From contig JANXCV010000002.1 of NCBI GenBank assembly GCA_025059235.1, positions 145,498 through 209,497 of the forward strand: 64,000 nucleotides of DNA, written 5' to 3'. The stretch comes from Candidatus Calescibacterium sp. (GTDB lineage Bacteria > DRYD01). Every line of letters begins with the position of its first letter. The stretch's first letter is position 1. The translations under genes and the position numbers were made by a program. Shown here piece by piece: positions 2,395 through 27,262 of the stretch. The notes beneath the pieces were generated by a model. The model saw only the letters and a program-made list of their open reading frames with translations. It did no database searches and had not been told where the DNA came from.

Positions 2395-3312
2395 ATGGAA
2401 GTGATAGTTGCAAAAAATTCAGCTAGGATAGATAAATTTTTATCTGAAAATCTTGGGATATCAAGGTCCTTAGCTCAGGAATACATAATAAAAGGATTAG
2501 TAAGTGTAAATAATTCTCTTGTCAATAAAGTGAGCAAGATTATCAAAGAGGGTGACGTTGTTCATATTAAATCAAAGTACCTAAAAGAGGACAAATTTGA
2601 AAATATTCAGGTTGAGTTAAAAAACATAGAAATATACAAAAATCTAGAGGTTCCGATCTTGTTTGAAAATGATGATATCATTTGTATAAATAAACCTGTT
2701 ATAAATGTTAACAAAGTTGGTTCAAATCCAAGTATATATGAATATTTGATTTACAAAGGTCTGAAACCGTTTATAGTTCATAGATTAGATAAGCAGACTA
2801 CAGGTTGTCTCGTTGTTGCAAAGAATTATGAAACTGCAGAGTGTTTATCTTTACTCTTTAAGAATAGGAAAGTGGAGAAAATATATTTTGCAATTGTTGA
2901 GGGGGTAGTTAAGCAAAATCTAGAGATTCATTCTGCCATACATCATACTTCGACCCCTTTCAGAAAACAGGTGATTTCATATGGAAAAGAATCCACCACG
3001 ATTATAAAAGTAAAGAAATATCTAAAAAAGGAGAGCTTAGCTAGGTATTTTGCAGATGATATCTTTTTTAACAAAAATATAGAGGATTTTAGCTTTTTGG
3101 AAGTACAGATAATAACGGGTAGAACACATCAGATAAGGGTTCATTGTTCGGAGATTGGACATCCAATTGTCGGAGATACAAGATATTCTAGCTCAGTCTC
3201 TATATCAAAAGGAAGAGTTTTTCTATTGCATTCTCATAAGATTTCCTTCGAACTCTGGGGTAAAAAGTATGAATTCTCATGTTTACCAAGTTGGTATATT
3301 TTGATCTCTTAA
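2395..3312 (+). CDS. RluA-family 23S rRNA pseudouridine synthase (RluD-like, with S4 domain)
   Basis: N-terminal S4-like region; HRLDKQTTGCLVVAKN catalytic motif; RTHQIRVH. Confidence 0.8.
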   Translation: MEVIVAKNSARIDKFLSENLGISRSLAQEYIIKGLVSVNNSLVNKVSKIIKEGDVVHIKSKYLKEDKFENIQVELKNIEIYKNLEVPILFENDDIICINKPVINVNKVGSNPSIYEYLIYKGLKPFIVHRLDKQTTGCLVVAKNYETAECLSLLFKNRKVEKIYFAIVEGVVKQNLEIHSAIHHTSTPFRKQVISYGKESTTIIKVKKYLKKESLARYFADDIFFNKNIEDFSFLEVQIITGRTHQIRVHCSEIGHPIVGDTRYSSSVSISKGRVFLLHSHKISFELWGKKYEFSCLPSWYILIS

Positions 3313-3820
3313 TTTCCACTCTTGATAGGAGTCTTTTGGTTGAACAAAATTGCCAGCAATAATGGATATGATAAAGCTTATCCTTTTTTTGCAGATGACA
3401 AAGCAAAAATTTATGTGACTTGATCGAGTTTATTTTTGCAATCGATGAGAAAAAAACATAGGAAACGTATAGATTATTTTGATTGATTACAAATAATTAG
3501 GAAGTAGATAGTGATTAATCCTTGATGTCTGGGGAATAAGAAATATAAGACACATCAAATTGCTGCAATGCTTAAAATCTACATAGACCGATCTTATTCA
3601 ATTCGGATCAGTCGATACTACAAGCTAAAAAATCGAAAAAGAGAGTAGTTAACACTGCTTAAGGGAAGGAGATCTAACTATAAATATAGCATGATTCTAT
3701 TAATGAGTTTTTAAAAAAGTAAAAAATGTAAAAACAAAGTTGTTTTTTCAAAAAAAGTTTTATAAATAATAATCCAGACTAGTGAAAATAAGATATATAC
3801 TGATTTAGGGAGGATCAAAA

Positions 3821-3883
3821 ATGTTGAAACAAAGGGGAAGTGTACTAGTGCAAATATTATTTTCTTTCAGTTTTACTTTTTAG
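3821..3883 (+). CDS. 20-aa small ORF with a strong RBS, immediately upstream of the pilin cluster; may be a leader peptide or remnant
   Basis: AGGGAGGA lies 7 nt before ATG. The peptide is MLKQRGSVLVQILFSFSFTF. Confidence 0.2.
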   Translation: MLKQRGSVLVQILFSFSFTF

Positions 3884-3908
3884 CGTTATTATACTAAATT
3901 TCTTCAGA

Positions 3909-4647
3909 ATGCAACAAACGCAACCAGTGAGACGATTCAGCCCTGCTAATAATGACTCAGAAGATCCAGGATTAGGAATAGTAAAAACAATAAATATTTT
4001 TTCTAGGTCTGATCTGATAAGAGGAAGGTATATAGTTTATCGTGATAATACAACTAATAGATACAAATCACAGGACATATCTGAATTATATGGTAAGCCA
4101 GCTGGTACAATATGGGTAATTTATTCCGAAGGACAAATAATAAGGAGGGATACAAACCAAGTGATAGCAAAGAAAACAATAGGATGCCTAATAAGAAGGG
4201 TAGCAATACAAATTCCATATGATGCAACTATAATATGCAGAAATATAAGCAATATTAGGCTGGTATCAAGAATAAATTTAAGATCTTCAGATATAAATAT
4301 TGTAGGCGTATCAGGAAACCCTGGAATAGAAGATAGAAATACCTGCTCTATTATACCAGCAAATTCGATAAATACCGTAACTGATTATGATGAGAAGGTA
4401 ACTCTTAATTGGATTTTCGGAATGACATTTGATGAATTGAGAAAAGTAGCGGACTATGTAGTATCAGATCAACATAGGTCCTTTTTACGGATCAGGGATA
4501 ATAGTTTCAAATGCTAGTATAAGAATAGTAGGTCATACACCAATGAACTTCAACGGTATAATATATATGATGCCGGGAACAGACCTAGAAATACAGTGCC
4601 CAGGTTCAATTAACGGAGTAATAATATCTGATGGTGAATTAATATAA
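3909..4647 (+). pseudogene. Hypothetical protein, apparently frameshifted: 3909-4517 stops at TAG, and a protein-like reading continues in the +1 frame to 4647
   Basis: The 202-aa ORF is followed in the next frame by SIRIVGHTPMNFNGIIYMMPGTDLEIQCPGSINGVIISDGELI, which is open. Confidence 0.35.
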
Positions 4648-4703
4648 AGGCAGAGACAGAGGAATATAAAGATAGATAGACATAAAAAGGGGGCTATGAA
4701 AAA

Positions 4704-5120
4704 GTGAAAGAAAAAGGATTTTCAATAATTGAAGTATTAGTGAGCGTACTAATAATAATTATCGTGGTTATGACTTCGGTAGCTTTTATCACATACATAT
4801 CAAGAGAAACACAGAATATGAAAGACAAGGCAATAGCAGTAATTAAAGCAAATCAGATCATTTCTGAGATTAGAGAATATGTATCTAGTAAAAAAGAACG
4901 AAGAAATCTTAGATATTTAGACTATTTTAATGACAGATCTCCAAATACAAAGCTAACGATAGAAAATGTTTCGGACCCTTCACTACCTCCATCAGAAAAT
5001 ATAAGGATAGGAAATAACTATAAATATGCAAAGCAAATAGTAGTATATCGCTTGCCAAACTCTAATCCAAATGCAGATAACATAAGAGTAGTGGAAGTTA
5101 GAATGTTCAAATGGAATTAA
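4704..5120 (+). CDS. Type IV pilin/pseudopilin with a prepilin-type N-terminal cleavage/methylation domain
   Basis: MKEK-G|FSIIEVLVSVLIIIIVV: class III signal peptide with Glu at +5. GTG start with GGGGG RBS. Confidence 0.7.
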   Translation: MKEKGFSIIEVLVSVLIIIIVVMTSVAFITYISRETQNMKDKAIAVIKANQIISEIREYVSSKKERRNLRYLDYFNDRSPNTKLTIENVSDPSLPPSENIRIGNNYKYAKQIVVYRLPNSNPNADNIRVVEVRMFKWN

Positions 5121-5171
5121 AGAACCGGAGGATGGACATATCTAACTTCTGTATCAACAGTTGTTAATACT

Positions 5172-6062
5172 ATGATTGAATTTCCTCCACCTAGACATGC
5201 TTATGACATATTTTTCCTTTCAATAGGTACTGTGCCTGGCTGGTGGGTTCATAACCCTGAAATAAGGCAAGTAGTAGATAGTGTAATATCTGATCTGGAG
5301 AGCAGAAATCCTGGACTGGATATAAATCCAAGATGGATAAACGTAATGTGTTACGGAGGAACGGATCCATACTACAGACCATTTATAGGAGTAAGAAATA
5401 ACTTATCTGGATCAAATGCAGGAGAACCTCTAGAATCAGATCTAGTATATTATTATCCTGGAACAAGTTATATAAACAATAATCCTTCATTAGCGTTTAG
5501 ATATTACACTGATTTTCTTATGATGGGTAACATATGGTACCGCGATGAGCAAAATAATAGAGAAAAAAGGTGCGTATACAATTTCTCTTTAGCAGATAAG
5601 TATTTACCACCATTAAGAAACGAATCAGATCCAGCAAAACTACCACTAATCGATAGGCAAGTATATACAAACCTACCTTCATCATTTACACCAGATAGAT
5701 ATCAAAATATAAGAGTTGCTGTTCATCCAGAAAACATAGCCTATGAAGATACAGGTATTCCTAACCGAGAGGATATATCCTTGAGAGTATATGCTTATCA
5801 ACTGGATCCTATGCAAAATATTTTACCTAATGATAGAATAGAATACATAACTTTGCTAATAGGACCATTGGAGAATAACAGTTATTCAGTAACAATGACA
5901 GCTATAGAAGGTGGGGTTCAACCGCGTATCAGTGGGTATTACAAGATAATAGATAACCAACAGGTAGATGTAGAGCTAGGTTCGGGAGAAGTGAAAGTAG
6001 ATAGAGAAACAGATGATACAACAATGGAAGCTTATTTTAGAAATGTTATCAATAGATGGTAG
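5172..6062 (+). CDS. Hypothetical N/Y/P/W-rich protein; possibly the first segment of a disrupted large pilus-associated gene
   Basis: 296-aa ORF. Its 3' end overlaps the next ORF, which is in a different frame. Confidence 0.45.
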   Translation: MIEFPPPRHAYDIFFLSIGTVPGWWVHNPEIRQVVDSVISDLESRNPGLDINPRWINVMCYGGTDPYYRPFIGVRNNLSGSNAGEPLESDLVYYYPGTSYINNNPSLAFRYYTDFLMMGNIWYRDEQNNREKRCVYNFSLADKYLPPLRNESDPAKLPLIDRQVYTNLPSSFTPDRYQNIRVAVHPENIAYEDTGIPNREDISLRVYAYQLDPMQNILPNDRIEYITLLIGPLENNSYSVTMTAIEGGVQPRISGYYKIIDNQQVDVELGSGEVKVDRETDDTTMEAYFRNVINRW

Positions 6063-6420
6063 TAATTATATTGCTATTAAATTAGTAAATACTCCCACAA
6101 AATGTCCTATGATTAATGGTCAGGGGCTAAATCAAAATCAGAGACCATATGGATTAGAGTATATACCTTTCATGTTTCCTTTTGGTAATTACGCAGATCT
6201 CACTACTAGGAATCCAGATGTTCCCAAAAATACAGCAAGGTGGATAATAACAATACATGACGTAGAAAAAACAGACGATATTGCTAAACCATTAAAAGTA
6301 TACTATACGATAGATCCACCAACTTCTACACGTGGAAGATCACATATATTTGATCTCGGGATGTGGGACAAGATGCCAGAATATACTGGCAAAACATATG
6401 TTTGGGTATGCAAAAAATAA
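6013..6420 (+). CDS. Hypothetical protein; overlapping-frame continuation, or translationally coupled from ATG 6043
   Basis: ORF in the next frame, overlapping the upstream ORF by 50 nt. Confidence 0.35.
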   Translation: MIQQWKLILEMLSIDGSNYIAIKLVNTPTKCPMINGQGLNQNQRPYGLEYIPFMFPFGNYADLTTRNPDVPKNTARWIITIHDVEKTDDIAKPLKVYYTIDPPTSTRGRSHIFDLGMWDKMPEYTGKTYVWVCKK

Positions 6421-6745
6421 GAGACATAATGTATTTTTTGCATTTCCCGATAATGTAAATGTAAATACAATACGAAGCCAATATTTTAATAATCAACCAG
6501 AAGTTCTTTCTAATAATCCTAATGGAGGGTGGAATACAAATAGACCAGGTTCAATTGCTTCATCACCGGTAAATGTTCCAGGAGCTTTTTACATAATAAG
6601 GGAAGCATTAGCTAGAAGCCACTCTATTATTACTTCAATTACAGGTTTCTCATTCTATTATATAGGGCTTGGACAAGAAGTAGGGGAGGTCTACAAAATG
6701 GCCTTCCTACAGGAGTACCAGTATCTGGCAAAGTATTTGGAATGA
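6332..6745 (+). CDS. Hypothetical protein; possible start at ATG 6395, otherwise a frameshifted continuation
   Basis: ORF in a third frame overlapping the upstream ORF. Ends in an ATGA overlap with the next ORF. Confidence 0.35.
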   Translation: MEDHIYLISGCGTRCQNILAKHMFGYAKNKRHNVFFAFPDNVNVNTIRSQYFNNQPEVLSNNPNGGWNTNRPGSIASSPVNVPGAFYIIREALARSHSIITSITGFSFYYIGLGQEVGEVYKMAFLQEYQYLAKYLE

Positions 6746-7842
6746 GTGGAGTAATACGTGAGGACTCGGTAACAGCAAGAGAAGATATAGGTCGAGATGT
6801 AGGCTATTTAGGGATTAAAAACATAGTTAGGACAACAGGAAATTGGGGAGGAAGTAAACCAGCAGCCTGGGGAAATTTTGCTCTACCATTTTTAGGAGAA
6901 ATATACCCAGATGATATGTATAATTTCTGGAAGGAAAACGGTAACTTAAAAAATGATACATTTATAAAGAGAAGATGAAGAGATTCACTTCATCCGAATA
7001 ATTTCCCAGATTATAAAACTGCTATGTTAGAACCTATGGGATGTGCCTCATTTTTCAATGTTCAACCAGAGAATAGAAATTTCTGGTTTATTCATGGATG
7101 GGCTAGTGATGCTGATCCAGATGCAAGAAGACAAGCCTTGGCATTACAATTGTAGGAAGCATTTAACGTTTCTCTACCAAGAGAAATGGCTGCTGCACGT
7201 CCCTGGAACATAGGAGAGTTTCAATATCTGCCAATATAGGACAAGGTAGACCACCCGAATGGAACTACGAATTTTACAGAAGAAATCGATTTAGAAGCAG
7301 TGTAGCTGGGATATTTTATGATCATCGAGGAGCGCGGTGGGCGGGAGGGAATAGAATTAAGTTATGCGATTATTACTAGTATATATGCTTTCTTGTTAGC
7401 AGGTTTTGATACACATCCAGGAATAAATCGTCCCCCTCAATTGCCACTCGTAAGAATAATTAATCCAAGAAATGCTGAAGAAATAACATCTACTACCTTG
7501 AGAATAAATTTTGAAGTACAGTTCAGAAGATGGGATAGTCAAGATTATATACCTAATCAGCCTCGAGATATACATCAAAATCTCAGTGACTGGAGATTTT
7601 TAATTAAATATCAACCGGAAGGAGATTCAAATTGGTACTTTATACAAGATTTGGATAGAGGATTCCCAACAAAGTTAGGCCAAAGGCCAGAAAATGAAGA
7701 GTACTATATTCAAACTACTAACTATGTTAGGGATATATCACGTATACCAAACGGTATGTACTGGATAGTGTTAGAAGCCCATCATAGACAAAGAATTAAT
7801 CATTTCTCTTATCACATGATATATGTAAAGATCGAAAAATGA
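6742..7842 (+). pseudogene. Single reading frame interrupted by four in-frame stops (TGA 6976, TAG 7153, TAG 7237, TAG 7303); probably the decayed C-terminal part of the large gene that starts at 5172
   Basis: I translated the frame by hand. 6742-6978, 6979-7152, 7156-7236, 7240-7302 and 7318-7842 are all in the same frame and read as protein, e.g. NRNFWFIHGWASDADPDARRQALALQL. Confidence 0.45.
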
Positions 7843-7862
7843 AAAAGAAGGGATTCTTTTAG

Positions 7863-8648
7863 ATGCGTAGAGGATTATCGCTTGCCGAAGTTTTAATATC
7901 TGTATCACTAATGTCCTTCATTCTGATTTCCTTCTTCATGATCTTTAGTGGGATAAATACAGAATCTAGGATTGCTGAAACATGGTCAGACATAGTTTCT
8001 AATACATCCTCAGCTTTAGACAAGATAAAAGCTTCATATCTGGGAGCGGAGTACATCTTCACAAGGAGACAAGTAAGTGAACTTTTATCCAGATTTAATC
8101 AACTAAATATTTTCAACGATACAAAATTCGCAGAACCAATAGACAACATTGATGAATTTAGAAATCTAACTTTTCCAAATGATAATGTAGGCAATGCTAT
8201 ATGCTTTTTATCTTTTGAAGGATTGGCAGTTTTCAGTGGATCAAATACAAGGGTAATAATTCCAAGATACAGAATAAACATTATACACCTAAGATCTTTT
8301 GATAGAACTTTTTTGTCTTGGTCAAATACTGGAATAATAGACTTAGTTCTATCACAAAGTCAATTCATTTATTCAAACGAAACATTACCGGAACAGGTAA
8401 ACGATCCTCAGTTATTACAGAGTCTAGGAGGACTAATTTTTTTAGACAAAAGGCGGACAGATGATATATCTGAATTTTTCAGAGTTTTATCAGGAGGTAG
8501 TTTTCAGGAATACCAGGGACCGATAAATTTTCCTATCAGAAGTTCTTTATTAAAAAACGAGAGTTACTATGGTATAAGATACTCAATAGCATATAATAAT
8601 AATGTTATGAGAGATATATCGAGCATGAATATAAGGATTCCGGCATAG
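7863..8648 (+). CDS. Prepilin-type N-terminal cleavage/methylation domain protein (minor pilin/pseudopilin-like)
   Basis: MRR-G|LSLAEVLISVSLMSF: class III signal peptide with Glu at +5. Confidence 0.65.
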   Translation: MRRGLSLAEVLISVSLMSFILISFFMIFSGINTESRIAETWSDIVSNTSSALDKIKASYLGAEYIFTRRQVSELLSRFNQLNIFNDTKFAEPIDNIDEFRNLTFPNDNVGNAICFLSFEGLAVFSGSNTRVIIPRYRINIIHLRSFDRTFLSWSNTGIIDLVLSQSQFIYSNETLPEQVNDPQLLQSLGGLIFLDKRRTDDISEFFRVLSGGSFQEYQGPINFPIRSSLLKNESYYGIRYSIAYNNNVMRDISSMNIRIPA

Positions 8649-9775
8649 GCTGGAATAGACATGCGGCTTCAAAACTTTCCAGCAGGTCTAGAAATAATAG
8701 TGATAGGTAATAAAAGCAGTAGGAAAATCTATACAAGAATATGTATAATAGCAGATATGTCTAGGAAAAAGGTAAAGTATAATTCATCAACAGTTACGGT
8801 TTACGTTTCAGAGAAATTTTAGCAAAAATTTTACAAAGAAATGAATATTTGCTTGTAGAGGAAAAGAGTTATTATTCCCTGCCATATCGGGTTTTTTCAT
8901 TCCACTAATTATCCCTCCCTGTTAAATTTAGTAAATTTTGTTATTACTGAAATAAATCTATCGTTAGGCTGAAAGGCATAGTAGAAATATTCTAAAGAAT
9001 AATCGTGAGTATATATACGATGTAGAGAGTATTCCTTATAGTTAAAATCAGCTTTTTTCTATTTCTCCTTGTAATCTAATTCTCTTATGTTGCGTTGCTT
9101 ATTGCAAATCGTAAGGATATAGCATACAAAAAGTCGTCGATATGATTTAATTTTAGAAAAGATGAAGTATTGGAATGAACTAGAAGAAATATTAAGATGT
9201 TTTTTGTGTATGGTTTATACTAAATTTACGTTAAAATTGTTTTTTGCTCTAAATAAGTTATTCGAAGATTGTTGAAGTACATTGTGAATGATTATTTTCC
9301 TTCTGCTATTACTATATAAAACCTGCTTTATCAAGCCTTATAGTCAGGGAAGGCATTATTTTTTATCTTACAGAGGAAGTATCACTTTTTCTATATTATC
9401 AGTGAGATTTTGGCAAATCTCTATAATTGCTTTTTCAAGCCAAGTATTTGAATTTAACAATTTTGTTCTCTATGTGGTAATGTATTTAAGCAAAAATTAG
9501 GCAAAGAGGAACACGTATCGTAAATTCTTTATAAAGTACACTATAAGAAATAATCACAACCTAAGCTAATAGGAAGACAATAATGAAATTTATGTTATTA
9601 CATATCCAGGAGAAATAGAAGTACCACATCGAGCTATTTTCTAGAAAAAGTAGGCTTTTGTAAATAATCCCTAAATTGGCAAAAAAATTCGAACAATAAG
9701 TAATCAGGCAGAAACGGTAGTAATAAGCTTGCATCTATTTGATCTGAAGCTTGCAGATAGGTAGGAGGGAAGGTA

Positions 9776-10349
9776 TTGTCAGGAAAATCTATGAGTATGA
9801 ACAAAAATTTTCAAATTGGAATAAGTTCATTCGAGAAGATAAGGACAGAAAATTCTTGCTACATTGACAAGACTCATTTTATCAAAAAACTTGTTGGTCG
9901 GGGTAGTTACTACTTTCTTTTAAGACTGCAAAGGTTTGGCAAATCTTTGTTTCCATCAGGTGTGCTTTTTAAGGTAAAAAAGAGCTATTTCAGGATTTAT
10001 TTCTTGAGAACAATTGGGATTCGCATATAAAATATCCGGTTATAAGGTTTGTTTTTGACACTACGTTAAAAAATACAGCGGATCCAAAAGAATTTATTGG
10101 ATCCCTACAAGACTACCGGACGGGAATATCGAAATTTGTTAAGGTATCTCTTTTTAGTGGAATTAATTCACTTAATGACATTTCTCTAGATAGGGATTGC
10201 TCTACGATTTGTGGATGCACTCATAGTGAATTGTTATCAACTTGATGTATTACTATACTTTCAAAAAAGGAGTTTAGGAACTATTACTCTGAAACGGGAA
10301 AGCTGTTATTTCTCATAAAAGTGCTTCAAACAAATTTCAAAGCGGTTAT
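9776..10349 (+). pseudogene. Disrupted AAA-ATPase/PD-(D/E)XK nuclease-like gene of the 'AAA-ATPase-like domain' family (DUF1703-type)
   Basis: The N-terminus NKNFQIGISSFEKIRTENSCYIDKTHFIKKL..GSYYFLLRLQRFGKSL matches the family hallmark (..GIQDFE.IRE....YVDKT....L...GKYYFLSRPRRFGKSL). Downstream frames continue with KYPVIR.., ISKFVKVSLFSGINSLNDIS and GKLLFLIKVLQ after stops and frame changes. Confidence 0.55.
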
Positions 10350-10960
10350 TTAACTATTGTTGAATCTATTACAAGAAACGCAGGAGTTTTATTTATCTTC
10401 ATTATGAGGTAAAGATCTCTTTGATTTCAACGTTAGCTTAGTTGTTTGTAAAGTCTTGTCCTGTAGCACAAAATATTACTAAGTTTTTTGGACAACTTGT
10501 TTGCTAAAGTTCTGTTTTAGTGGCATACAAATACTTCGAAATATGAAGCGTTTTACTGTACGATATTTTATGTTTTTTAGTATCTGCTAAGTTCAGTGTT
10601 ATAGCTGAAGATACATCCTCTTCTTAGAGATTTGACAGTAATACATAAAGATCATACATATTTGAGTTCAAAGTAGACAAAGGAGATCCAATGTAACAGA
10701 TTTTGAAAAGAGGATAATACAAAAAGTATTTGAATATGGGGAAGATTGTTGGTATTGGTATAGTTGTAGATTCTTCATATAGGTCTGTTAAACAGTTCTA
10801 GATTGAGAGAATAAAGTAATTGTAATTAACATTATGATTCCAAATTAGACTAGAAGGTGGTTGATCTCTCATCTATAATCCAAAAGCTCTAAAACATATA
10901 GTGGGAGAATCTTTATGGGGAGGTTTGATTTTATATCAACACAGGGATTTCATAATCCTC

Positions 10961-11140
10961 AACTTTCTGAGCATTCCAAATCTGTATGGCTATCTCCTAA
11001 TAAAATAGCTATTCTGTAAGTTTACAGAAAATCTTTCTATTGTTCTCCTAAGAAGTGGATTTTTGAGGTTTTTACAGGGACAGTTTTCTTCTGGTTTGTA
11101 TTATAGCTTTTATCGAAAATTTCTGGATCAAAGATTATGA
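10961..11140 (-). pseudogene. Degraded copy of an internal segment (about aa 72-137) of the gmhB-like HAD phosphatase gene at 16543-17073
   Basis: About 85% nucleotide identity to 16661-16857 in the same orientation, with a 17-nt deletion and in-frame stops. Confidence 0.7.
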
Positions 11141-12162
11141 ATTTCCGAATCCTTTTTCTCCTAATGTTCTGTATATTTTAAATCATTTATTTCTATCGTT
11201 TATTATTGAAGGAAGAAAACTTTAAAAAAATTGATCATTATGAAATAGTGGATCGGCTACTTTATATTTCCCGTTATTAAAATCTAACCAAAAAGCAGAA
11301 GAATTTGTCAGAAGATATGTTGAGATGGTAAAAGCTGGGAAAGATTCTGTATCAGTTTCTTGAAGACATTGAGTGAAATATACCTTGTAGAATATTTTAG
11401 ATTTGGTGATGAAGTAGATTCTCCTGGAAAATATAGTATGTTACAAATTATATTAATAAAACTGAAGTTAGATAGATACAAAATTACTGTAGGTATGGAA
11501 TAGTAAAAAGACTACACAAAGAACTGTTATCGCAAAAAAACAACGACTATAAACAGTCAGGAGAGTTGGGCATTTTGTCACCATCTGTGCTGATATTTCT
11601 TAAACAGTGGGTAAATTGATAATCTGGATCGAAAATATCCTGCTAGAGGAGTATAGAGATACACTAAGAGAAGTAATATTGGAATGAAATAAGGCTTTTA
11701 ACAAGATTTGATATAGTGATCTGATCGAGGCAGGAGCCCAAACCTGATGACGATGACAAAGCATAAGGTATCCAACTATAAGATACCAGCATGTTAAATG
11801 CAACTACTTTTGCTGTAAGTTCTTGAATGTTACCAGTTAAGTGTCAAAGAAGATAATTAGAAATATACAGACAATTTTTGTACGGTATGGAGTACACTAT
11901 TTTCGAATCTCTATGTATTATGCTATCTGATACCAAATACTACGGAAATAAATAAGGAAAAATTTGCAAGAGATTGTATAAAAAAACATATTTTTCTAAC
12001 CATTGCCGGTACTGCAAAGAAGAAGGATATTAACCAATTAATCAAGATAAAAATGAAAACTATAGATGTAAAAACGAAAATTATAGATGAAGAGATTAAT
12101 CTATTGTAAGTTTTATTTATAGAACCTTGAAAAAGTTTATCTGTATTGGAAAACACCAAATG

Positions 12163-12936
12163 CTATTCCAACTTTTCGTTGAATACTATGAAGTTTTTTG
12201 TTTTACCTTTTTCTATCTCAAGTAAAACGGCGTTGAATATGTAGGGTTTTTCTCGTTCAGGTTCAAACTTGCTTGATAATCCTGTTTCAAATTTTTCCAG
12301 TATACTTGAGATTTTGAAACCTATAATCGAATTATATGAGCCACACATACCTACATCACTTATGAAAAATGTTCCTTGTGGTAATATTCTGGCGTCAGAA
12401 GTTTGTACATGTGTATGTGTTCCGATTACTGCTGATACCTGTCCGTCTAGCAGGTATCCTATCATATATTTTTCTGCAGTTGCCTCTGCGTGTAAGTCTA
12501 CAATGATATTTTCGTATTTCTCAAAAAATCCTTCTTCTTTTAGCTTTTTTATTGTTACTAGTGGACTTATAGGTGTATCAAGGAAAGTTTTTCCTAGAAG
12601 ATTGATCACTGCTAAATTTAATTCTTCATTGGTATATATTCTTTTTCCAGGGGCCCATGGGAAAAGATTGTATGGAACTATTATATTATCTACCTGCTTT
12701 AATATTTCTAGAATTTCTTTGTTATCCCAAGCGTGATTCCCTGTGGTTATTAAGTTTGCTCCATATTCTATTAGTTCGGTGTAAGTTTTTTTGCTTACAC
12801 CAAATCCACCAGCACTGTTTTCTCCATTTACTATTACAAAGTCTACTCTATGTTGATTTTTTATTATCTTTAAAAAATGTTCGAAAGCTTTTCTTCCCGA
12901 TGTAGATACCGTGTCCCCTACAAATAGTATATTCAT
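12163..12936 (-). CDS. ymdB: YmdB-like metallophosphoesterase (TIGR00282 family, 2',3'-cyclic-nucleotide phosphodiesterase)
   Basis: MNILFVGDTV..., GENSAGGFG and TTGNHAWD motifs match YmdB. Confidence 0.75.
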   Translation of the reverse strand: MNILFVGDTVSTSGRKAFEHFLKIIKNQHRVDFVIVNGENSAGGFGVSKKTYTELIEYGANLITTGNHAWDNKEILEILKQVDNIIVPYNLFPWAPGKRIYTNEELNLAVINLLGKTFLDTPISPLVTIKKLKEEGFFEKYENIIVDLHAEATAEKYMIGYLLDGQVSAVIGTHTHVQTSDARILPQGTFFISDVGMCGSYNSIIGFKISSILEKFETGLSSKFEPEREKPYIFNAVLLEIEKGKTKNFIVFNEKLE

Positions 12937-12957
12937 TTTTGTATATTTTCCTGAGTT

Positions 12958-13281
12958 CTATATTTCTGATTCTGAAGCTATTACACTTTCCAGACCGTAT
13001 TTGAGGTTTACAACATCTATTGAGGTTGGTTTTCTTATGTTGGTTACTGATATTTCAGGTATACTTTTAAATTGTTCTGCTAGAGTTTGAATCAAATTTT
13101 CTTTGTCTTCTACTGATATTAGCATTCTTATGGTTTTGGGTTTTACTTCTGAAGGCATTATGCCTTCTATTCCTGTTGTAAAGGCTGCTATATTGGCATT
13201 CATTTGGGCTAATATGGAGGTTATTTTTGCTAGCACTCCGGGTTTATCTTCGATTACCTTTGCTTCTATGTAGAGGATCAT
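12958..13281 (-). CDS. ACT domain-containing protein
   Basis: 107 aa; KPGVLAKITSILAQMNANI is an ACT-type regulatory fold signature. Confidence 0.55.
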   Translation of the reverse strand: MILYIEAKVIEDKPGVLAKITSILAQMNANIAAFTTGIEGIMPSEVKPKTIRMLISVEDKENLIQTLAEQFKSIPEISVTNIRKPTSIDVVNLKYGLESVIASESEI

Positions 13282-13344
13282 ACTGTTTTCCTTTGAACTA
13301 CGGGTAAAGCTTTTGTATACCGCTCTTTACCCTAAGCGGTTATT

Positions 13345-14019
13345 TTAATAGTTTTTCACTACATTATCTATTCCCATCTTTTTTAATTTATTACTTTCTT
13401 CAATTGCTTCCTCTTTTGTTCGATATGGTCCAATTATTACTCTATATATGGACTTTTCTTCTATTATGATTTGTTCTACTTTAGGTTCAAGGCCTATGGA
13501 TTCTAGCTGAGTTTTCATAGCTTTAGCGTTATCGATAGATGAAAATGATCCGAGCTGAATGTAGTATAGTCCATCGATGTTGAGGTTTTTTTCATTATTT
13601 TCTTGTTTTGTTTCAGGTATAACTGATTCGGAGTTAGATTCTTTTTTTGTTTCCTGATGGTTTGTATTTGATGTGTTTTCCTCTATTTCTTTCTCATTAT
13701 GTTCCGAGGATATACTTTCCTCTTTTTTGGTGGTAGTTTTTATCGTCGTTATAGTTGTGTTGGGTATTAAACTATTGTTATTATCATTTTCTGAAATACT
13801 TTTTTTATTTTTTTCTTCTCTTTGGAGATGTGGTATGACTATTGAGGGTTGATTGTTTTCTGAAAAGGTATTGTAGGTTTTTTCTTCTATGAGTGGGGAT
13901 ATTAGAGGCTTTTCAGTTTCTTTGGTTGGGCTTATTTTTTCTTTGTAGAAATTTTGACCGGCATAATATCCTATTGCAGAAGCTGCGATAATTAGAAGTA
14001 TGAGCACTATGTACTTCAT
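13345..14019 (-). CDS. SPOR domain protein (septal peptidoglycan-binding) with N-terminal membrane anchor and low-complexity linker
   Basis: N-terminal TM helix, an N/S/T/E-rich linker, and a C-terminal YYIQLGSFSSIDNAKAM...YRVIIGPYRTKEEA SPOR motif. Confidence 0.65.
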   Translation of the reverse strand: MKYIVLILLIIAASAIGYYAGQNFYKEKISPTKETEKPLISPLIEEKTYNTFSENNQPSIVIPHLQREEKNKKSISENDNNNSLIPNTTITTIKTTTKKEESISSEHNEKEIEENTSNTNHQETKKESNSESVIPETKQENNEKNLNIDGLYYIQLGSFSSIDNAKAMKTQLESIGLEPKVEQIIIEEKSIYRVIIGPYRTKEEAIEESNKLKKMGIDNVVKNY

Positions 14020-14038
14020 TATATTTTTTGTTTTCTTA

Positions 14039-15055
14039 TTATATTTTTTGTTTTCTTAGTTCTGCTGCTGATACTTCTGGTGGGATCGGATTTATATATG
14101 TACCTGTTCCCCATTCAAAACCAGCTACCTTTGTTAGCCTTGGGATTATCTCTATATGCCAGTGAAAATATTCTTTGCTGTTTGAGTTAGGGGGTGCAGT
14201 GTGAAGCATCATGTTGAATGGAGGGTTATCTAGCAATAGGTAAATTTTAGATAATACTACTTTTAGGGTTTCTGCTAAGTCTACAACATGATTCTTATCT
14301 ATATCTTCAAAACGGTGAGAATGTTTTTTAGGTATAATCCATGTTTCGAACGGAAAAACTGATGCGAATGGACAAAAAGCTATGAACGAATTATTTTCAA
14401 ACACTATTCTATCTTGATGTCCTCTTTCTTGGGTTATTATATCACAGAATATACATCTATCTTTGAGATCGTAGTATTCTTTCGCGTTATCTATCTCATT
14501 TTTTATCACGGAAGGTATTATGGGTGTTGCTATGATTTGTGAGTGTGGGTGGAAAAGAGAAGCTCCGGCATCCTTACCATGATTTTTAAATATAATAACA
14601 TACTTTATCCTGGGATCTTTTGATAGCTCTATTATTCTATCTCTATAAGCCCAGATTATTTCTTGGTAAAGTTCTTGGGATGTTGTTATTGAAACGGCCA
14701 TATGGTCTTCGCCTTCTATAAGAACTTCATGATATCCTATACCGTTCATAAAATCGTATATTCCAATTCCTTTTTTATCTAGATCTCCATCTGGTTTGAG
14801 AGCTGGAAACTTGTTGTTTACTACTCTTATCCACCAACCTGGTCCGTTTGCCAGCGTACCTGGTTTTCTGTAGGCTAATACTTCTGGAGGGGTCATGTAC
14901 TCATTACCTGGACAGAAAGGACACTTCGATGGGTCCCCAGGGTCATCTTTTATTCTCTGCTTAAAATCATTCGGTCTTGCTGCTCTTTCTGTAGCTATTA
15001 TCACCCATCTCTTTAATACTGGATCTTTTCTTAGTTCCGGCATAGCTTTCCCCAC
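14039..15055 (-). CDS. galT: Galactose-1-phosphate uridylyltransferase (class I GalT)
   Basis: CPFCPGNE zinc motif and FHPHSQIIA active-site HPH motif; duplicated HIT-like halves. Confidence 0.75.
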   Translation of the reverse strand: MGKAMPELRKDPVLKRWVIIATERAARPNDFKQRIKDDPGDPSKCPFCPGNEYMTPPEVLAYRKPGTLANGPGWWIRVVNNKFPALKPDGDLDKKGIGIYDFMNGIGYHEVLIEGEDHMAVSITTSQELYQEIIWAYRDRIIELSKDPRIKYVIIFKNHGKDAGASLFHPHSQIIATPIIPSVIKNEIDNAKEYYDLKDRCIFCDIITQERGHQDRIVFENNSFIAFCPFASVFPFETWIIPKKHSHRFEDIDKNHVVDLAETLKVVLSKIYLLLDNPPFNMMLHTAPPNSNSKEYFHWHIEIIPRLTKVAGFEWGTGTYINPIPPEVSAAELRKQKI

Positions 15056-15106: not shown

Positions 15107-16603
15107 TTAAGAATTAAATTCTTTTTCTATGAAGTAAACGATTTTGTTATTTGCTATAAACTTTTCTTGTAATCCCGATATGGAACCAAATTTTTTGAAG
15201 TCCTCATCCCTAACGATAGGTAAACCAAACAATAAATCATCTAGTTTTATTCTGTAAAAATTATTTATATAGTGATTCAAAATCTTGAAATTTAATTTTT
15301 TGCCTTCTAACATGATTTTCTGAAGTGTAAGCAAGAATTCTATACATAGTATTATACAACAAAAGTAAACTGCTTTTATTAACTTTCGAGAATTATTTTC
15401 GCTATAACTTACCATGTCTTCCTGATGCAAACTAACTGGAAAATTTTCGATACTCGTAGGATAACATAAGTTTTTTAATTCTGTTAGGATATGAGAAGCA
15501 AGGTATTGACTTATCATAAACCCACTGTTTAGACCTTCTTCTTTGGTAAGGAAGCTGGGATTTAGTATATGATTCATTCTTTGAAAGGAAATATTTGAAA
15601 TTTGAAAAATATGAACTGCTAGATGATCACACATCGTAGATATCGTATTACCGTGAAAATTTCCGGCTGAAATAAAATCATCATCTATAATCAAAGGATT
15701 GTCAGTGTTGCTTTTCAATTCACTATCTGCGAAATGAAAACATAATTCATACATTCCGTAAATGCTTTCAAATATCTGGGGATAGCACCTATATGAATAG
15801 GGAGCTTGTAATGGGTAATTATTACTCTGTCTTATTTCTAGCTTTTCTATTATACTATTTAGATCATCTATGGCTTTGCTGAAATACTTACTACTCTTGG
15901 TATTTTTCAGCTTTTTATGAAAATGTGAAAGGTTTATATTGTTTGCTACTGAACTCAAGACCAATACAAAATTAGAAAATTCTATCAATTTGGAAATAAG
16001 GAACAAACCGACAGAAAAGTTTGCCAATGAATATGAAGTACCATTGATGAAAGATATTGACTCTTTTGTTTTGGGTGAGTAGCTTTCAAGAACTTTTAGG
16101 AAAATATGGGATAAAGGGATTAAATCTCCGCTTGCACCTACCGAAGTCCAACAAGGAATTTCTGGTAGATCTTTATTTTCTAGCATTTTCACAAGATGAA
16201 GTATTAAGTCTAAACTAACACCACTATACCCTATCGACATCTGTCTTAATCTGATCAAAATGGTTAAGAATACGATCAACTTGCTTACAGGTTTGCCATA
16301 ACCAGCGCTATGAGAGTAGATCAAGTTATATTGTAATTTTTCCAGATCGTTAGATGATATAATTCTATCGAATAATTTACCGAAGCCGGTGTTTATCCCG
16401 TATACTGGTCTGTTTATTCTGTCTACTTTTTTTCTTACTTCACTTATCTTATTCTTTAGACTTTCAGATATTTCTATACGTATTTCCGGAATTTCAAGAT
16501 ACTCGAAATATTTGTGAATTATTTTTGTAATCTCTTGGATGTCTAGTTTATCAAGTTCAACTCTGATAGATTCTTTACTATCTTGAATGGTTTTTTCTGC
16601 CAT
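15107..16603 (-). CDS. hutH: Aromatic amino acid ammonia-lyase family protein (histidine ammonia-lyase-like)
   Basis: GFGKL N-terminal motif and VGASGDLIPLSHI, the Ala-Ser-Gly MIO-forming triad context. The start overlaps the upstream gene by 61 nt, so the true start may be later. Confidence 0.6.
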   Translation of the reverse strand: MAEKTIQDSKESIRVELDKLDIQEITKIIHKYFEYLEIPEIRIEISESLKNKISEVRKKVDRINRPVYGINTGFGKLFDRIISSNDLEKLQYNLIYSHSAGYGKPVSKLIVFLTILIRLRQMSIGYSGVSLDLILHLVKMLENKDLPEIPCWTSVGASGDLIPLSHIFLKVLESYSPKTKESISFINGTSYSLANFSVGLFLISKLIEFSNFVLVLSSVANNINLSHFHKKLKNTKSSKYFSKAIDDLNSIIEKLEIRQSNNYPLQAPYSYRCYPQIFESIYGMYELCFHFADSELKSNTDNPLIIDDDFISAGNFHGNTISTMCDHLAVHIFQISNISFQRMNHILNPSFLTKEEGLNSGFMISQYLASHILTELKNLCYPTSIENFPVSLHQEDMVSYSENNSRKLIKAVYFCCIILCIEFLLTLQKIMLEGKKLNFKILNHYINNFYRIKLDDLLFGLPIVRDEDFKKFGSISGLQEKFIANNKIVYFIEKEFNS

Positions 16604-17073
16604 GATTGAGCTTCCTCTAACTTCGTCTTACCGGTGAGGACTAAGATGAATTTTATTCCCAAACTTTCTGAGCATTCCAGATCTGTATAACTATCTCCTA
16701 TAAAATAACTATTCTCTAAATTTACAGAAAATCTTTGTATTGCTTTCCTTAGAAGTAGATTTTTGGGTTTTCTACAGGGACAGTTTTCTTCTGGTCTGTG
16801 TGGACAGAAATAAATGGCTTTTATCGAAAATTTCTGGATCAAAAATTTTGATAGCTGTACAAAAAAAGATAGATCTACTATACCTTTGTTTATCCCTGCT
16901 TGATTGGTTATTACTATAAATTGATAGTGATCCTTGTGTTTTTCCCAAAATTCCCCAAATCCTCTTATTATTCTGAATTCTTCAAAATCTTTTACATAAT
17001 CTTGTTCTAGGTATTCGTTTATAACTCCGTCCCTATCAAGGAATATGGTTTTTACCACCACCAATAATTCCAA
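16543..17073 (-). CDS. gmhB: HAD-IIIA phosphatase, D,D-heptose 1,7-bisphosphate phosphatase (GmhB)-like
   Basis: IFLDRDGVIN, CPHRPEENCPCRKPK and IGDSYTDLE motifs. Confidence 0.7.
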   Translation of the reverse strand: MELLVVVKTIFLDRDGVINEYLEQDYVKDFEEFRIIRGFGEFWEKHKDHYQFIVITNQAGINKGIVDLSFFVQLSKFLIQKFSIKAIYFCPHRPEENCPCRKPKNLLLRKAIQRFSVNLENSYFIGDSYTDLECSESLGIKFILVLTGKTKLEEAQSWQKKPFKIVKNLSELNLIN

Positions 17074-17498
17074 CCGAAGTTATACCAGCAGGGACTATAC
17101 AGATATGAGTAGTACATTGGGTAATACATATAATAGCTATAAGACATTAGAGAACCCAGTGCTAAACCAGTAAACAATCCTAATCCCCCTACTACTAGAT
17201 ATTTCCATAGATTGTTACTTGTATTTTCTGTATAGTTAGCTTGGTTTATGAAAGGATAGTTGTACTGAGTTTGTGGTATTACACTCAATTGCTGAGCCTG
17301 ATAAAAGGGATTTTGCAAGAAAGGATTCTCGTTACCTACTGGAGGAACTATCTTGGAATTATCGAAGGTGTTTACTACAACCGTATCTTTTACGGGTTGA
17401 TTTTGGGATTGATTAAAAGTCTGAACAGAAGACTGATTTTGAGAAGGTTGTAACTTTTGTATTTCTTGACCACTATTAATTTTCTTTATTTCTGTCAT
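17052..17498 (-). CDS. Hypothetical Q/N-rich protein with a hydrophobic aromatic C-terminal tail (...YNFGWNYWWW)
   Basis: ORF 17052-17567. I chose the start at MTEIKK (17498) to avoid overlapping the upstream ORF. Confidence 0.4.
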   Translation of the reverse strand: MTEIKKINSGQEIQKLQPSQNQSSVQTFNQSQNQPVKDTVVVNTFDNSKIVPPVGNENPFLQNPFYQAQQLSVIPQTQYNYPFINQANYTENTSNNLWKYLVVGGLGLFTGLALGSLMSYSYYMYYPMYYSYLYSPCWYNFGWNYWWW

Positions 17499-17500
17499 TT

Positions 17501-17809
17501 TCAACACCTCCATATCCCCAAGAATACCCATGGAACCCATGGAACAAATGGGATAGTATAACACCATAAAGGAAGAAAGGAAAAAGAGAACGGATGGAAA
17601 ATGTAGTTAAAACCGTTGTGGTATGGAACAAATCTGTAGTTATTATATACTGGCTCGTTATATGTATTGTTTATTATGTAGACATTATCTGCGTTTATTT
17701 CTACATTGTTGCCTTTTATTCCAACTTGGTATAGATTAGTTTTTCTTTGATTCTGTTCGGTAGGTATCTTGTTGCTTACTCTTGTAACTGAGCTGCGTTG
17801 TACGTTCAT
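17501..17809 (-). CDS. Hypothetical small protein with an aromatic, hydrophobic C-terminus
   Basis: 102-aa ORF lying between two other small genes on the same strand. Confidence 0.35.
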   Translation of the reverse strand: MNVQRSSVTRVSNKIPTEQNQRKTNLYQVGIKGNNVEINADNVYIINNTYNEPVYNNYRFVPYHNGFNYIFHPFSFSFLPLWCYTIPFVPWVPWVFLGIWRC

Positions 17810-26176: not shown

Positions 26177-27262
26177 TTACCATATGAATCCTCTGTCTCT
26201 GTTTTCTTCCACATGGTGTAATTCTTCGGGATGGTCGGTAAGGGTTATTGCCATGTTTTTAGTTATATGCCCTTCCTCTATCAGGTTTCTCAGACTTTTT
26301 CCGAATGTTATCATTCCATCATACTCACCGTTCAGAATATATTCGTATATCTGTGACATTTGATTATCTCTTATTAGGCCTTTAATGGTTGGTGTAGATA
26401 CCATTATTTCGACTACTGGCATTAGGTTTCCAGTTTTTATACTATTTACTAACTTTTGACAGATAATAGCGTTTAAAGAATTTATTAGTGCTTCTTTAAC
26501 TATTTCTCTTTGTTCTTGTTTGAACATATCGATTATTCTATATATTGTTTTAACTGTTGAGTCGGCGTGGACGGTGGTTATTACCATATGTCCTGTTTCT
26601 GCTGCATTGGCTGCTATCCATGCGCTTTGGGAGTCTCTTAGCTCACCCAGAAATATTATGTCTGGATCTTGTCTTAAAGCGTCTCTCAATCCTCTCTCAA
26701 ATGATACTGTATCTATACCTACCTCTCTCTGGGTAATAAATGATTTTTTATCTGTAAATACATATTCTATTGGGTCTTCTATTGTTACTATTCTTTTGGG
26801 ATAGTGGGAATTGATGTACTGTATTATTGCTGCTGCTGTTGTTGTTTTTCCACTACCTGCTGTGCCGGATATGATTACTAGTCCTCTTTGCTTTTCTATT
26901 ATTCTTATTATCAGGTCTGCAGGAAGGTTGAGAGCTTCGAAACTTTCAGGAGGAGTTAAAATTTTTCTGGCTGATATTCCTATAGAACCCTGAGTTTTGA
27001 ACACGTTTATTCTGAATCTAACATTACCTATACTAATACTGTAGTCGAATGATCCTACGGTTTCTAGTTCTTTCAGATATTGGGGGTTAAAATTTTCTTT
27101 TAGAATCTGTAAGATATTTTCGTAGGAGATTGGTTCGTTACCGAAGAAGACTAATTGCTTGTTTATTCTGTAAGCTGGCCTGGAACCAGCTTTTATGTGA
27201 AGATCTGTAGCATTTACATCTTTATCGGTCATTACTTCTAACATCTTTATAAAATTATACAC
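26177..27262 (-). CDS. pilT: Twitching-motility ATPase PilT (type IV pilus retraction)
   Basis: Walker A ISGTAGSGKTTT, HMVITTVHA, and Asp/His boxes of the PilT/GspE family. 361 aa, typical of PilT. Confidence 0.85.
   Translation of the reverse strand: MYNFIKMLEVMTDKDVNATDLHIKAGSRPAYRINKQLVFFGNEPISYENILQILKENFNPQYLKELETVGSFDYSISIGNVRFRINVFKTQGSIGISARKILTPPESFEALNLPADLIIRIIEKQRGLVIISGTAGSGKTTTAAAIIQYINSHYPKRIVTIEDPIEYVFTDKKSFITQREVGIDTVSFERGLRDALRQDPDIIFLGELRDSQSAWIAANAAETGHMVITTVHADSTVKTIYRIIDMFKQEQREIVKEALINSLNAIICQKLVNSIKTGNLMPVVEIMVSTPTIKGLIRDNQMSQIYEYILNGEYDGMITFGKSLRNLIEEGHITKNMAITLTDHPEELHHVEENRDRGFIW

Follow-up and report, generated by a model that had tools for sequence, protein, structure and literature searches.

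Modular pilins consist of a functional module grafted onto a pilin, and are probably displayed at the tip of the filament (PMC8179133). PilY1/PilC does not belong to the pilins, and its defining feature is a β-propeller at the C-terminus (IPR008707) (PMC8179133). ComZ of Thermus thermophilus is a large pilin-like protein, which by its size probably fits only at the filament tip, and which pairs with a smaller pilin (PMC6561018). Type IV pilus genes may also be lost: in Francisella they are inactivated by nonsense and frameshift mutations, and close strains differ in this respect (PMC2941502). Here we describe a locus from Candidatus Calescibacterium sp., within a 64-kb stretch of contig JANXCV010000002.1 (the whole stretch analysed, called here the window), which very probably holds the remains of a giant modular pilin gene. 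All counts of genes, open reading frames (ORFs) and tRNAs given for the source genome refer to this window. A search of the Calescibacterium literature, at the level of titles and abstracts, gave nothing on pili or pseudogenes.

The element in question lies at 4704–7842 on the plus strand. We are highly confident that this is a unitary pseudogene, in which a gene of approximately 1,140 codons for a giant modular type IV pilin is decaying. Its orthologues are intact single ORFs, the window copy has multiple lesions, the constraint on it is relaxed, and the lesions are reproduced across assemblies. All three genes of the module to which it belongs are disabled in the Candidatus Calescibacterium population, and individual strains are still acquiring lesions, one of them having deleted the region outright. 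This is an ordinary case of gene decay. An earlier reading, made from the sequence alone (below, the sequence-only reading), had proposed that the gene of a large protein within a minor-pilin cluster was pseudogenised, and this is borne out by the single gene of about 1,140 codons in relatives, by the recurrence of the lesions across assemblies, and by a 13:1 excess of non-synonymous changes.

The ORF listing and a three-frame translation show coding-like sequence in frame 3 at 5172–6062, in frame 1 at 6013–6420, in frame 2 at 6332–6745, and again in frame 1 at 6742–7842, with a G+C content of about 35%, like the surroundings. The last of these segments contains TGA 6976, TAG 7153, TAG 7237 and TAG 7303, exactly where the sequence-only reading had placed them. 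That reading was also correct in describing coding-like sequence that switches frame across 5172–7842, and two of the switches, which it put at about 6040 and about 6400, are located here at ~6035 and ~6412. A third, at ~6683, was implied in it and not listed, and two more are found at ~7237 and ~7353. The start at 5172 does not stand. The ORF at 4704–5120 is in frame with 5172, the only separator being a TAA at 5118–5120, and homologues read across it. Since this ORF is in frame and the first ~140 residues of the homologues match it, the unit starts at 4704, in agreement with tblastn. What had been taken for a separate upstream prepilin gene is thus the N-terminal pilin module of the giant gene, severed by the TAA. 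This module (4704–5117, plus strand) consists of the leader MKEKG/FSIIE, a hydrophobic helix and the first β-strands, is 74% identical to residues 1–137 of the homologue P0007, and is annotated on its own by NCBI as a hypothetical protein of 138 residues. Frameshift-aware alignment matches 4704–7839 to the protein reconstructed from locus L001 (1,142 residues, 66% identity) and to the homologue P0001 (1,136 residues, 60%).

A search with the frame-corrected translation of 889 residues, which the sequence-only reading had suggested, found 247 homologues. The best of them (P0001–P0008) are single full-length proteins of 1,136–1,158 residues. Their alignments extend over 100% of the query, and the E-values (2e-264 to 6e-216) put the similarity far beyond chance. 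They are approximately 250 residues longer than the query at the N-terminus, with a prepilin leader at the start. Family members have 1,030–1,450 residues, or 1,024 to 1,463 among the matches listed. In loci L002, L003 and L025 the gene is one uninterrupted ORF. The alternative that had been left standing, of relatives with the same small genes intact, is not the case: distant relatives have one long ORF. A scan of GTDB representative genomes gave 80 loci, the window's own genome not being among them. The module occurs in Elusimicrobiota, Acidobacteriota (Thermoanaerobaculia), Planctomycetota, candidate division FCPU426 and relatives of Calescibacterium. In a cultured organism, Acidobacteria bacterium Mor1 (CP011806), it lies at about 2.018–2.021 Mb.

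Lesions were called using a purpose-written frameshift-aware protein-to-DNA aligner, with the L001 reconstruction and P0001 as references. Both references gave the same list of eight point lesions plus large deletions, namely three nonsense codons (5118, 6976 and 7153), five frameshifts (~6035, 6412, 6683, 7237 and 7353) and deletions of 59, 27 and 34 codons; the lesion count is at least 11. All are given here on the plus strand. The TAA at 5118–5120 replaces a Gln of the relatives (Q140 in P0001). The 59-codon deletion is in frame, with its junction at 5603–5604, and has removed the conserved block QYNH..RYP..IIINLHGELMP, including the invariant residues R303, H352 and G353. At 6033–6036 one extra T in a T-run causes a +1 frameshift. 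A further +1 frameshift, in an A-run at 6409–6416, is joined to the 27-codon deletion, and here the invariant motif PITEQFQxLGDPRxCPY has been lost. A −1 frameshift in a G-run at 6683–6684 falls on the invariant G730. The TGA at 6976–6978 stands in place of a conserved Trp (KRRW), and the TAG at 7153–7155 in place of Glu/Gln. Finally, a −1 frameshift within 7216–7238 puts the ancestral frame into frame 3 until ~7353, where a +1 frameshift (7338–7363) leads back to frame 1; here 22 and 12 codons are also deleted around NGLSP, a motif that is otherwise invariant.

This analysis alters the picture of the stops in the last segment. The sequence-only reading considered all four to be of the substitution type, which holds for TGA 6976 and TAG 7153. 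From ~7237 to 7353, however, it is frame 3 that gives a translation matching the family, GQGRPPEWNYEFYRRNRFRSSVAGIFYDHRGA. The frame-1 codons TAG 7237 and TAG 7303 are therefore outside the ancestral frame, and are by-products of two frameshifts rather than nonsense substitutions. The same reading called the gene recently pseudogenised; the pseudogene stands, and "recently" is true only in a relative sense, given at least 11 lesions and the loss of 17 of the 51 family-invariant columns (defined from an 83-member alignment), 11 of these 17 through deletions. The closest relative, L001, has lost none of the 51.

Comparison with other strains shows which lesions are held in common. The metagenome-assembled genome (MAG) GCA_026416135.1 (L084), an independent assembly of a sister strain, is 99.73% identical over window positions 3802–14519, with 27 substitutions and 2 indels. 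It has six of the lesions: TAA 5118, TGA 6976, and the frameshifts at 6412, 6683, 7237 and 7353. The other two point lesions are private to the window strain, as L084 is without the extra T at 6035, having a 415-residue ORF there, and has CAG (Gln) at 7153. It has a private TAA of its own at 7759. The Logan contig L088, from SRR15826900 and produced by an independent assembler, has both TAA 5118 and the 6035 frameshift. The Logan contigs of SRR15826900 (L083, L088 and L087) break at window positions 4632 and ~6250, and are continuous over more than 20 kb of flank; breaks at the edge of the decayed region and inside it could reflect strain microdiversity in the island. A third strain, L085 (Logan SRR7039829), shows ~97% identity. 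It reads CAA at 5118 and has private lesions, namely a TGA three codons further on, a TAG for Trp and the loss of 69 bp. Window positions 5488–12037 are also missing from it, a deletion of 6.55 kb that fuses 5487 to 12038 (957/958 in L085) at an A/T-rich junction with short AAT(C) similarity. This has eliminated the greater part of the giant pilin remnant, together with the downstream pseudopilin and everything else in the island. Since lesions are variously shared, missing and private among the strains, they do not represent assembly error, and the decay is in progress.

Substitution patterns lead in the same direction. The window strain and the N2657 strain show 15 differences in the 3,139 bp of the remnant (4704–7842), or 4.8 per kb, versus 27 differences in the 22,727 bp of intact flank (12163–34889), or 1.19 per kb. 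The divergence is thus fourfold greater in the remnant (Fisher p=7e-5). When the remnant is read in the ancestral frame, its 14 substitutions comprise 13 that are non-synonymous, including two nonsense changes; the non-synonymous to synonymous ratio in the flank is 9:16. Selection on the remnant is relaxed.

These results have to be set against other explanations. It is very improbable that the gene is intact and that the lesions are errors of sequencing or of MAG assembly. Such errors would suit the three frameshifts in short homopolymers (T at 6035, A at 6412, G at 6683), the difference between two assemblies in the 6035 indel, and the Logan contig breaks at 4632 and 6250, near or within the gene. 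They do not suit six lesions that recur unchanged in an independently assembled strain with differences at 29 positions, nor three lesions that are base substitutions, nor deletions of 59, 27 and 34 codons that take out invariant motifs; the excess of divergence and the non-synonymous bias are beyond what errors at a few sites could yield, and in L085 the region is deleted. Phase variation, in which homopolymer slippage toggles a pilus adhesin, is fractionally less probable again. The G-tract of Neisseria pilC provides the comparison. The T-run at 6035 is indeed polymorphic between strains (T4 versus T3), and other frameshifts are also in short runs. Against this, the runs are of 3–7 bases, and with at least ten other lesions, including nonsense codons and motif deletions, no single change in a tract brings the frame back. 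Phase variation is rejected on this ground.

A reading in which the fragments are functional, either as separate small genes or as one protein obtained by programmed frameshifting, stop readthrough or recoding, is equally improbable. In the Candidatus Calescibacterium sp. MAGs to which exact sequence matches assign the window, with a contig of 451 kb, NCBI lists the fragments as separate hypothetical proteins (MCS7165245-53 and MDW8195209-17), and protein-like translation continues between the stops. A full product would nevertheless need five frameshifts in both directions and three readthroughs of three different stop codons. The sequence-only reading had judged recoding unlikely, TAG and TGA being ordinary terminators, and this is sustained by wider counts, with TAA, TAG and TGA serving as terminators of 23, 17 and 16 long ORFs in the window, respectively. 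The window encodes a single tRNA, Leu(CAG), so that no suppressor tRNA is present there, and no Rfam element is matched within 3000–12500. In addition, conserved core motifs are deleted, a loss that programmed frameshifting would not repair, relatives have one ORF, and the fragments are unconstrained and vary in number between strains.

Some points do weigh against a unitary pseudogene, or limit what can be said of its ancestor. Support for the lesions comes from agreement between assemblies rather than from raw reads. In L001 (Logan SRR28200752) the gene is otherwise intact and has one frameshift in a C-run (4100–4130), which splits it into 805 and 336 residues, and which may represent either a mistake of assembly or incipient decay. 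An intact paralogue might lie outside the 64-kb window, although none from this organism is among the 247 matches. The N-terminal fragment of 138 residues, with its start codon and pilin leader, may be made as a truncated product. The ancestral function as a tip adhesin or enzyme would follow by analogy only.

What kind of protein was lost can be approached through the intact family. The leader in the window, MKEKG/FSIIEVLVS, is of class III, with Gly at −1, Glu at +5 and a hydrophobic helix. The Pfam family N_methyl (PF07963) matches it with E=3.5e-4 and 20.5 bits, slightly below the cut-off of 21.2, and precomputed PF07963 matches are present in many family members. When the fragments, P0001 and the partner proteins were compared with Pfam and NCBIfam, the N-terminal methylation motif alone was found; matches of the family profile to PDB sequences are likewise restricted to the N-termini of pilins. 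The G/FSIIE leader and these N-terminal Pfam and NCBIfam matches identify the protein as a type IV pilin or pseudopilin. The body in the parent family keeps the invariant residues H352, D366, H397, D639, D647, H862 and H1124.

AlphaFold2 was run on the intact homologue P0001, not on the remnant, using an alignment of 83 sequences. The prediction is confident, with a predicted local distance difference test score (pLDDT) of 87.3 and a predicted template modelling score of 0.86. It consists of an extended helix at the N-terminus, a small sheet of pilin type and a body that is largely β. The helix covers residues 10–64 and the strands of the sheet 110–173; blocks of this region mostly have pLDDT of 84–93, with dips to 62–75 around residues 61–80, 121–130 and 151–160. 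The model therefore has the α1 helix packed on an antiparallel β-sheet that marks a pilin fold, and the pilin module is fused to approximately 950 further residues, which are also confidently folded. For this body of ~950 residues, no Pfam, NCBIfam or PDB match was found, and no vWA or lectin signature. Foldseek comparison of the P0001 model with the PDB gave nothing at E<=0.001; the best of the weak matches is Streptococcus sanguinis PilB, and the other weak matches are β-sandwich domains. Judged by sequence and model, the parent family is an uncharacterised giant modular pilin, and by all the tests run neither PilY1 nor ComZ; it fits the modular-pilin concept. In function it would be comparable to ComZ (PMC6561018) or PilY1.

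Intact loci (L001, L002, L003 and L025) show a trio of genes, with the giant pilin in the middle between a protein of 372–398 residues that has a hydrophobic N-terminus and a pseudopilin of 316–342 residues. In these loci the trio was not seen next to pilus or secretion machinery, and is flanked by unrelated housekeeping genes, for example an acyltransferase and UvrB in L003; in L025 the flanks are a DUF11 surface protein and a protein with a bacterial PH domain (bPH_2). This suggests that the module is a self-contained unit, possibly a horizontally mobile one.

Both partners are also damaged in the window. The remnant of the upstream partner (3821–4703, plus strand), which in the family has a hydrophobic N-terminus without Glu5, is frameshifted at ~3860 and again at ~4467, has lost 35 and 26 codons in two deletions, and meets a premature stop at 4645. 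The ORF at 3909–4517 is a mere fragment of this pseudogene. The downstream partner, a pseudopilin (7863–8822, plus strand), is full length and 65% identical to the 318-residue protein of L001, with an in-frame TAG at 8646 in place of Trp; L084 has the same split into 261 and 53 residues. Of the three genes, this one seems to have been inactivated last. Beyond it, the rest of the decayed island (8823–12162) comprises 3.3 kb with no ORF longer than 84 residues. It includes a remnant of AAA-ATPase_like (PF09820) at 9776–10030, and a frameshifted fragment, at 10953–11131 (minus strand), of a paralogue of the 176-residue gene at 16543–17079, the DNA being a repeat of 16654–16851 with 82% identity. 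Altogether the dead zone extends over ~3.8–12.2 kb, and the other 52 kb of the window is densely filled with long ORFs.

Two further observations concern the rest of the window. At 16543–17809 (minus strand) there are three overlapping ORFs of 176, 171 and 102 residues, called as 148 residues in L086 and 162 in L087, which may be another frameshifted or mis-called gene. Some 18 kb away, at 26177–27262 (minus strand), lies an intact ATPase of the T2SSE family, with 361 residues and thus of PilT-like size. Some type IV filament machinery may therefore persist in the genome.

We hypothesise that the prepilin leader of the ancestral protein would have been cut by prepilin peptidase, and that the N-terminal helix would have served as its anchor in a type IV filament. 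The trio was probably a tip or priming complex, on which the body of ~950 residues would be shown as an adhesin or enzyme. Loss of the function of the module would have lifted selection from all three genes, leaving them to neutral drift. The locus is of use as a clear view of genes still decaying in a thermophile known only without culture, in which lesions are shared, private or replaced by deletion, and suggests that the Calescibacterium population gave up one pilus-associated function. For annotation, about ten "hypothetical proteins" in public records (RMJ51_03080-03120 and the corresponding N2657 entries) derive from only three genes, all pseudogenes, and would be better merged and labelled accordingly. 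The wider lead concerns other genomes and not the window, and is the intact parent family, a widespread giant modular pilin without a match to a known fold. More doubtfully, the dead gene might point to a live and uncharacterised three-gene minor-pilin family whose central protein acts at the pilus tip as an enzyme or adhesin of a novel type, and its repeated loss, strain by strain, in a hot-spring population could mark a recent change of lifestyle.

It remains to place the protein among the described systems. The sequence-only reading had likened its position to that of ComZ or PilY1. This is apt to the extent that a large protein is encoded in a minor-pilin cluster, and fails in that there is no sequence or fold match to either. 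PilY1/PilC resembles it as a large protein among minor pilin genes with presumed display at the tip; membership was rejected, as a pilin leader is present and P0001 and the fragments have no Pfam match except N_methyl. ComZ is similar in being a large pilin-like protein from a thermophile with a smaller pilin partner, and differs in that the giant pilin is about twice its size. Neither the family profile against PDB sequences nor the model against PDB folds gave a match to ComZ, and membership of that type, a β-solenoid in a pilin framework, was consequently rejected.

The GspI/J/K tip complexes share with the trio a few co-encoded pseudopilin-like genes, of which the upstream one is without Glu5 and one is enlarged. 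Unlike them, the module is not beside secretion-machinery genes in the loci examined. In Pfam and NCBIfam, neither the giant protein nor the upstream partner (L001, L002, L003 and L025) matches GspK, GspI or GspJ, and a GspK-type pseudopilin was rejected for want of a GspK α-domain or T2SSK signature. There is also a likeness to the modular pilins S. sanguinis PilB and CofB of enterotoxigenic Escherichia coli, which also have a class III leader and a pilin module followed by a large grafted body, and are near minor pilin-like genes. The giant pilin differs from both in the size of its body (~950 residues), and in that the window copy is dead. As a case of decay, the locus resembles the Francisella pilus genes, with inactivation by nonsense and frameshift mutations and differences between strains; it is unlike them in coming from an uncultured thermophile, in affecting a giant modular pilin, and in the loss of a whole three-gene module.

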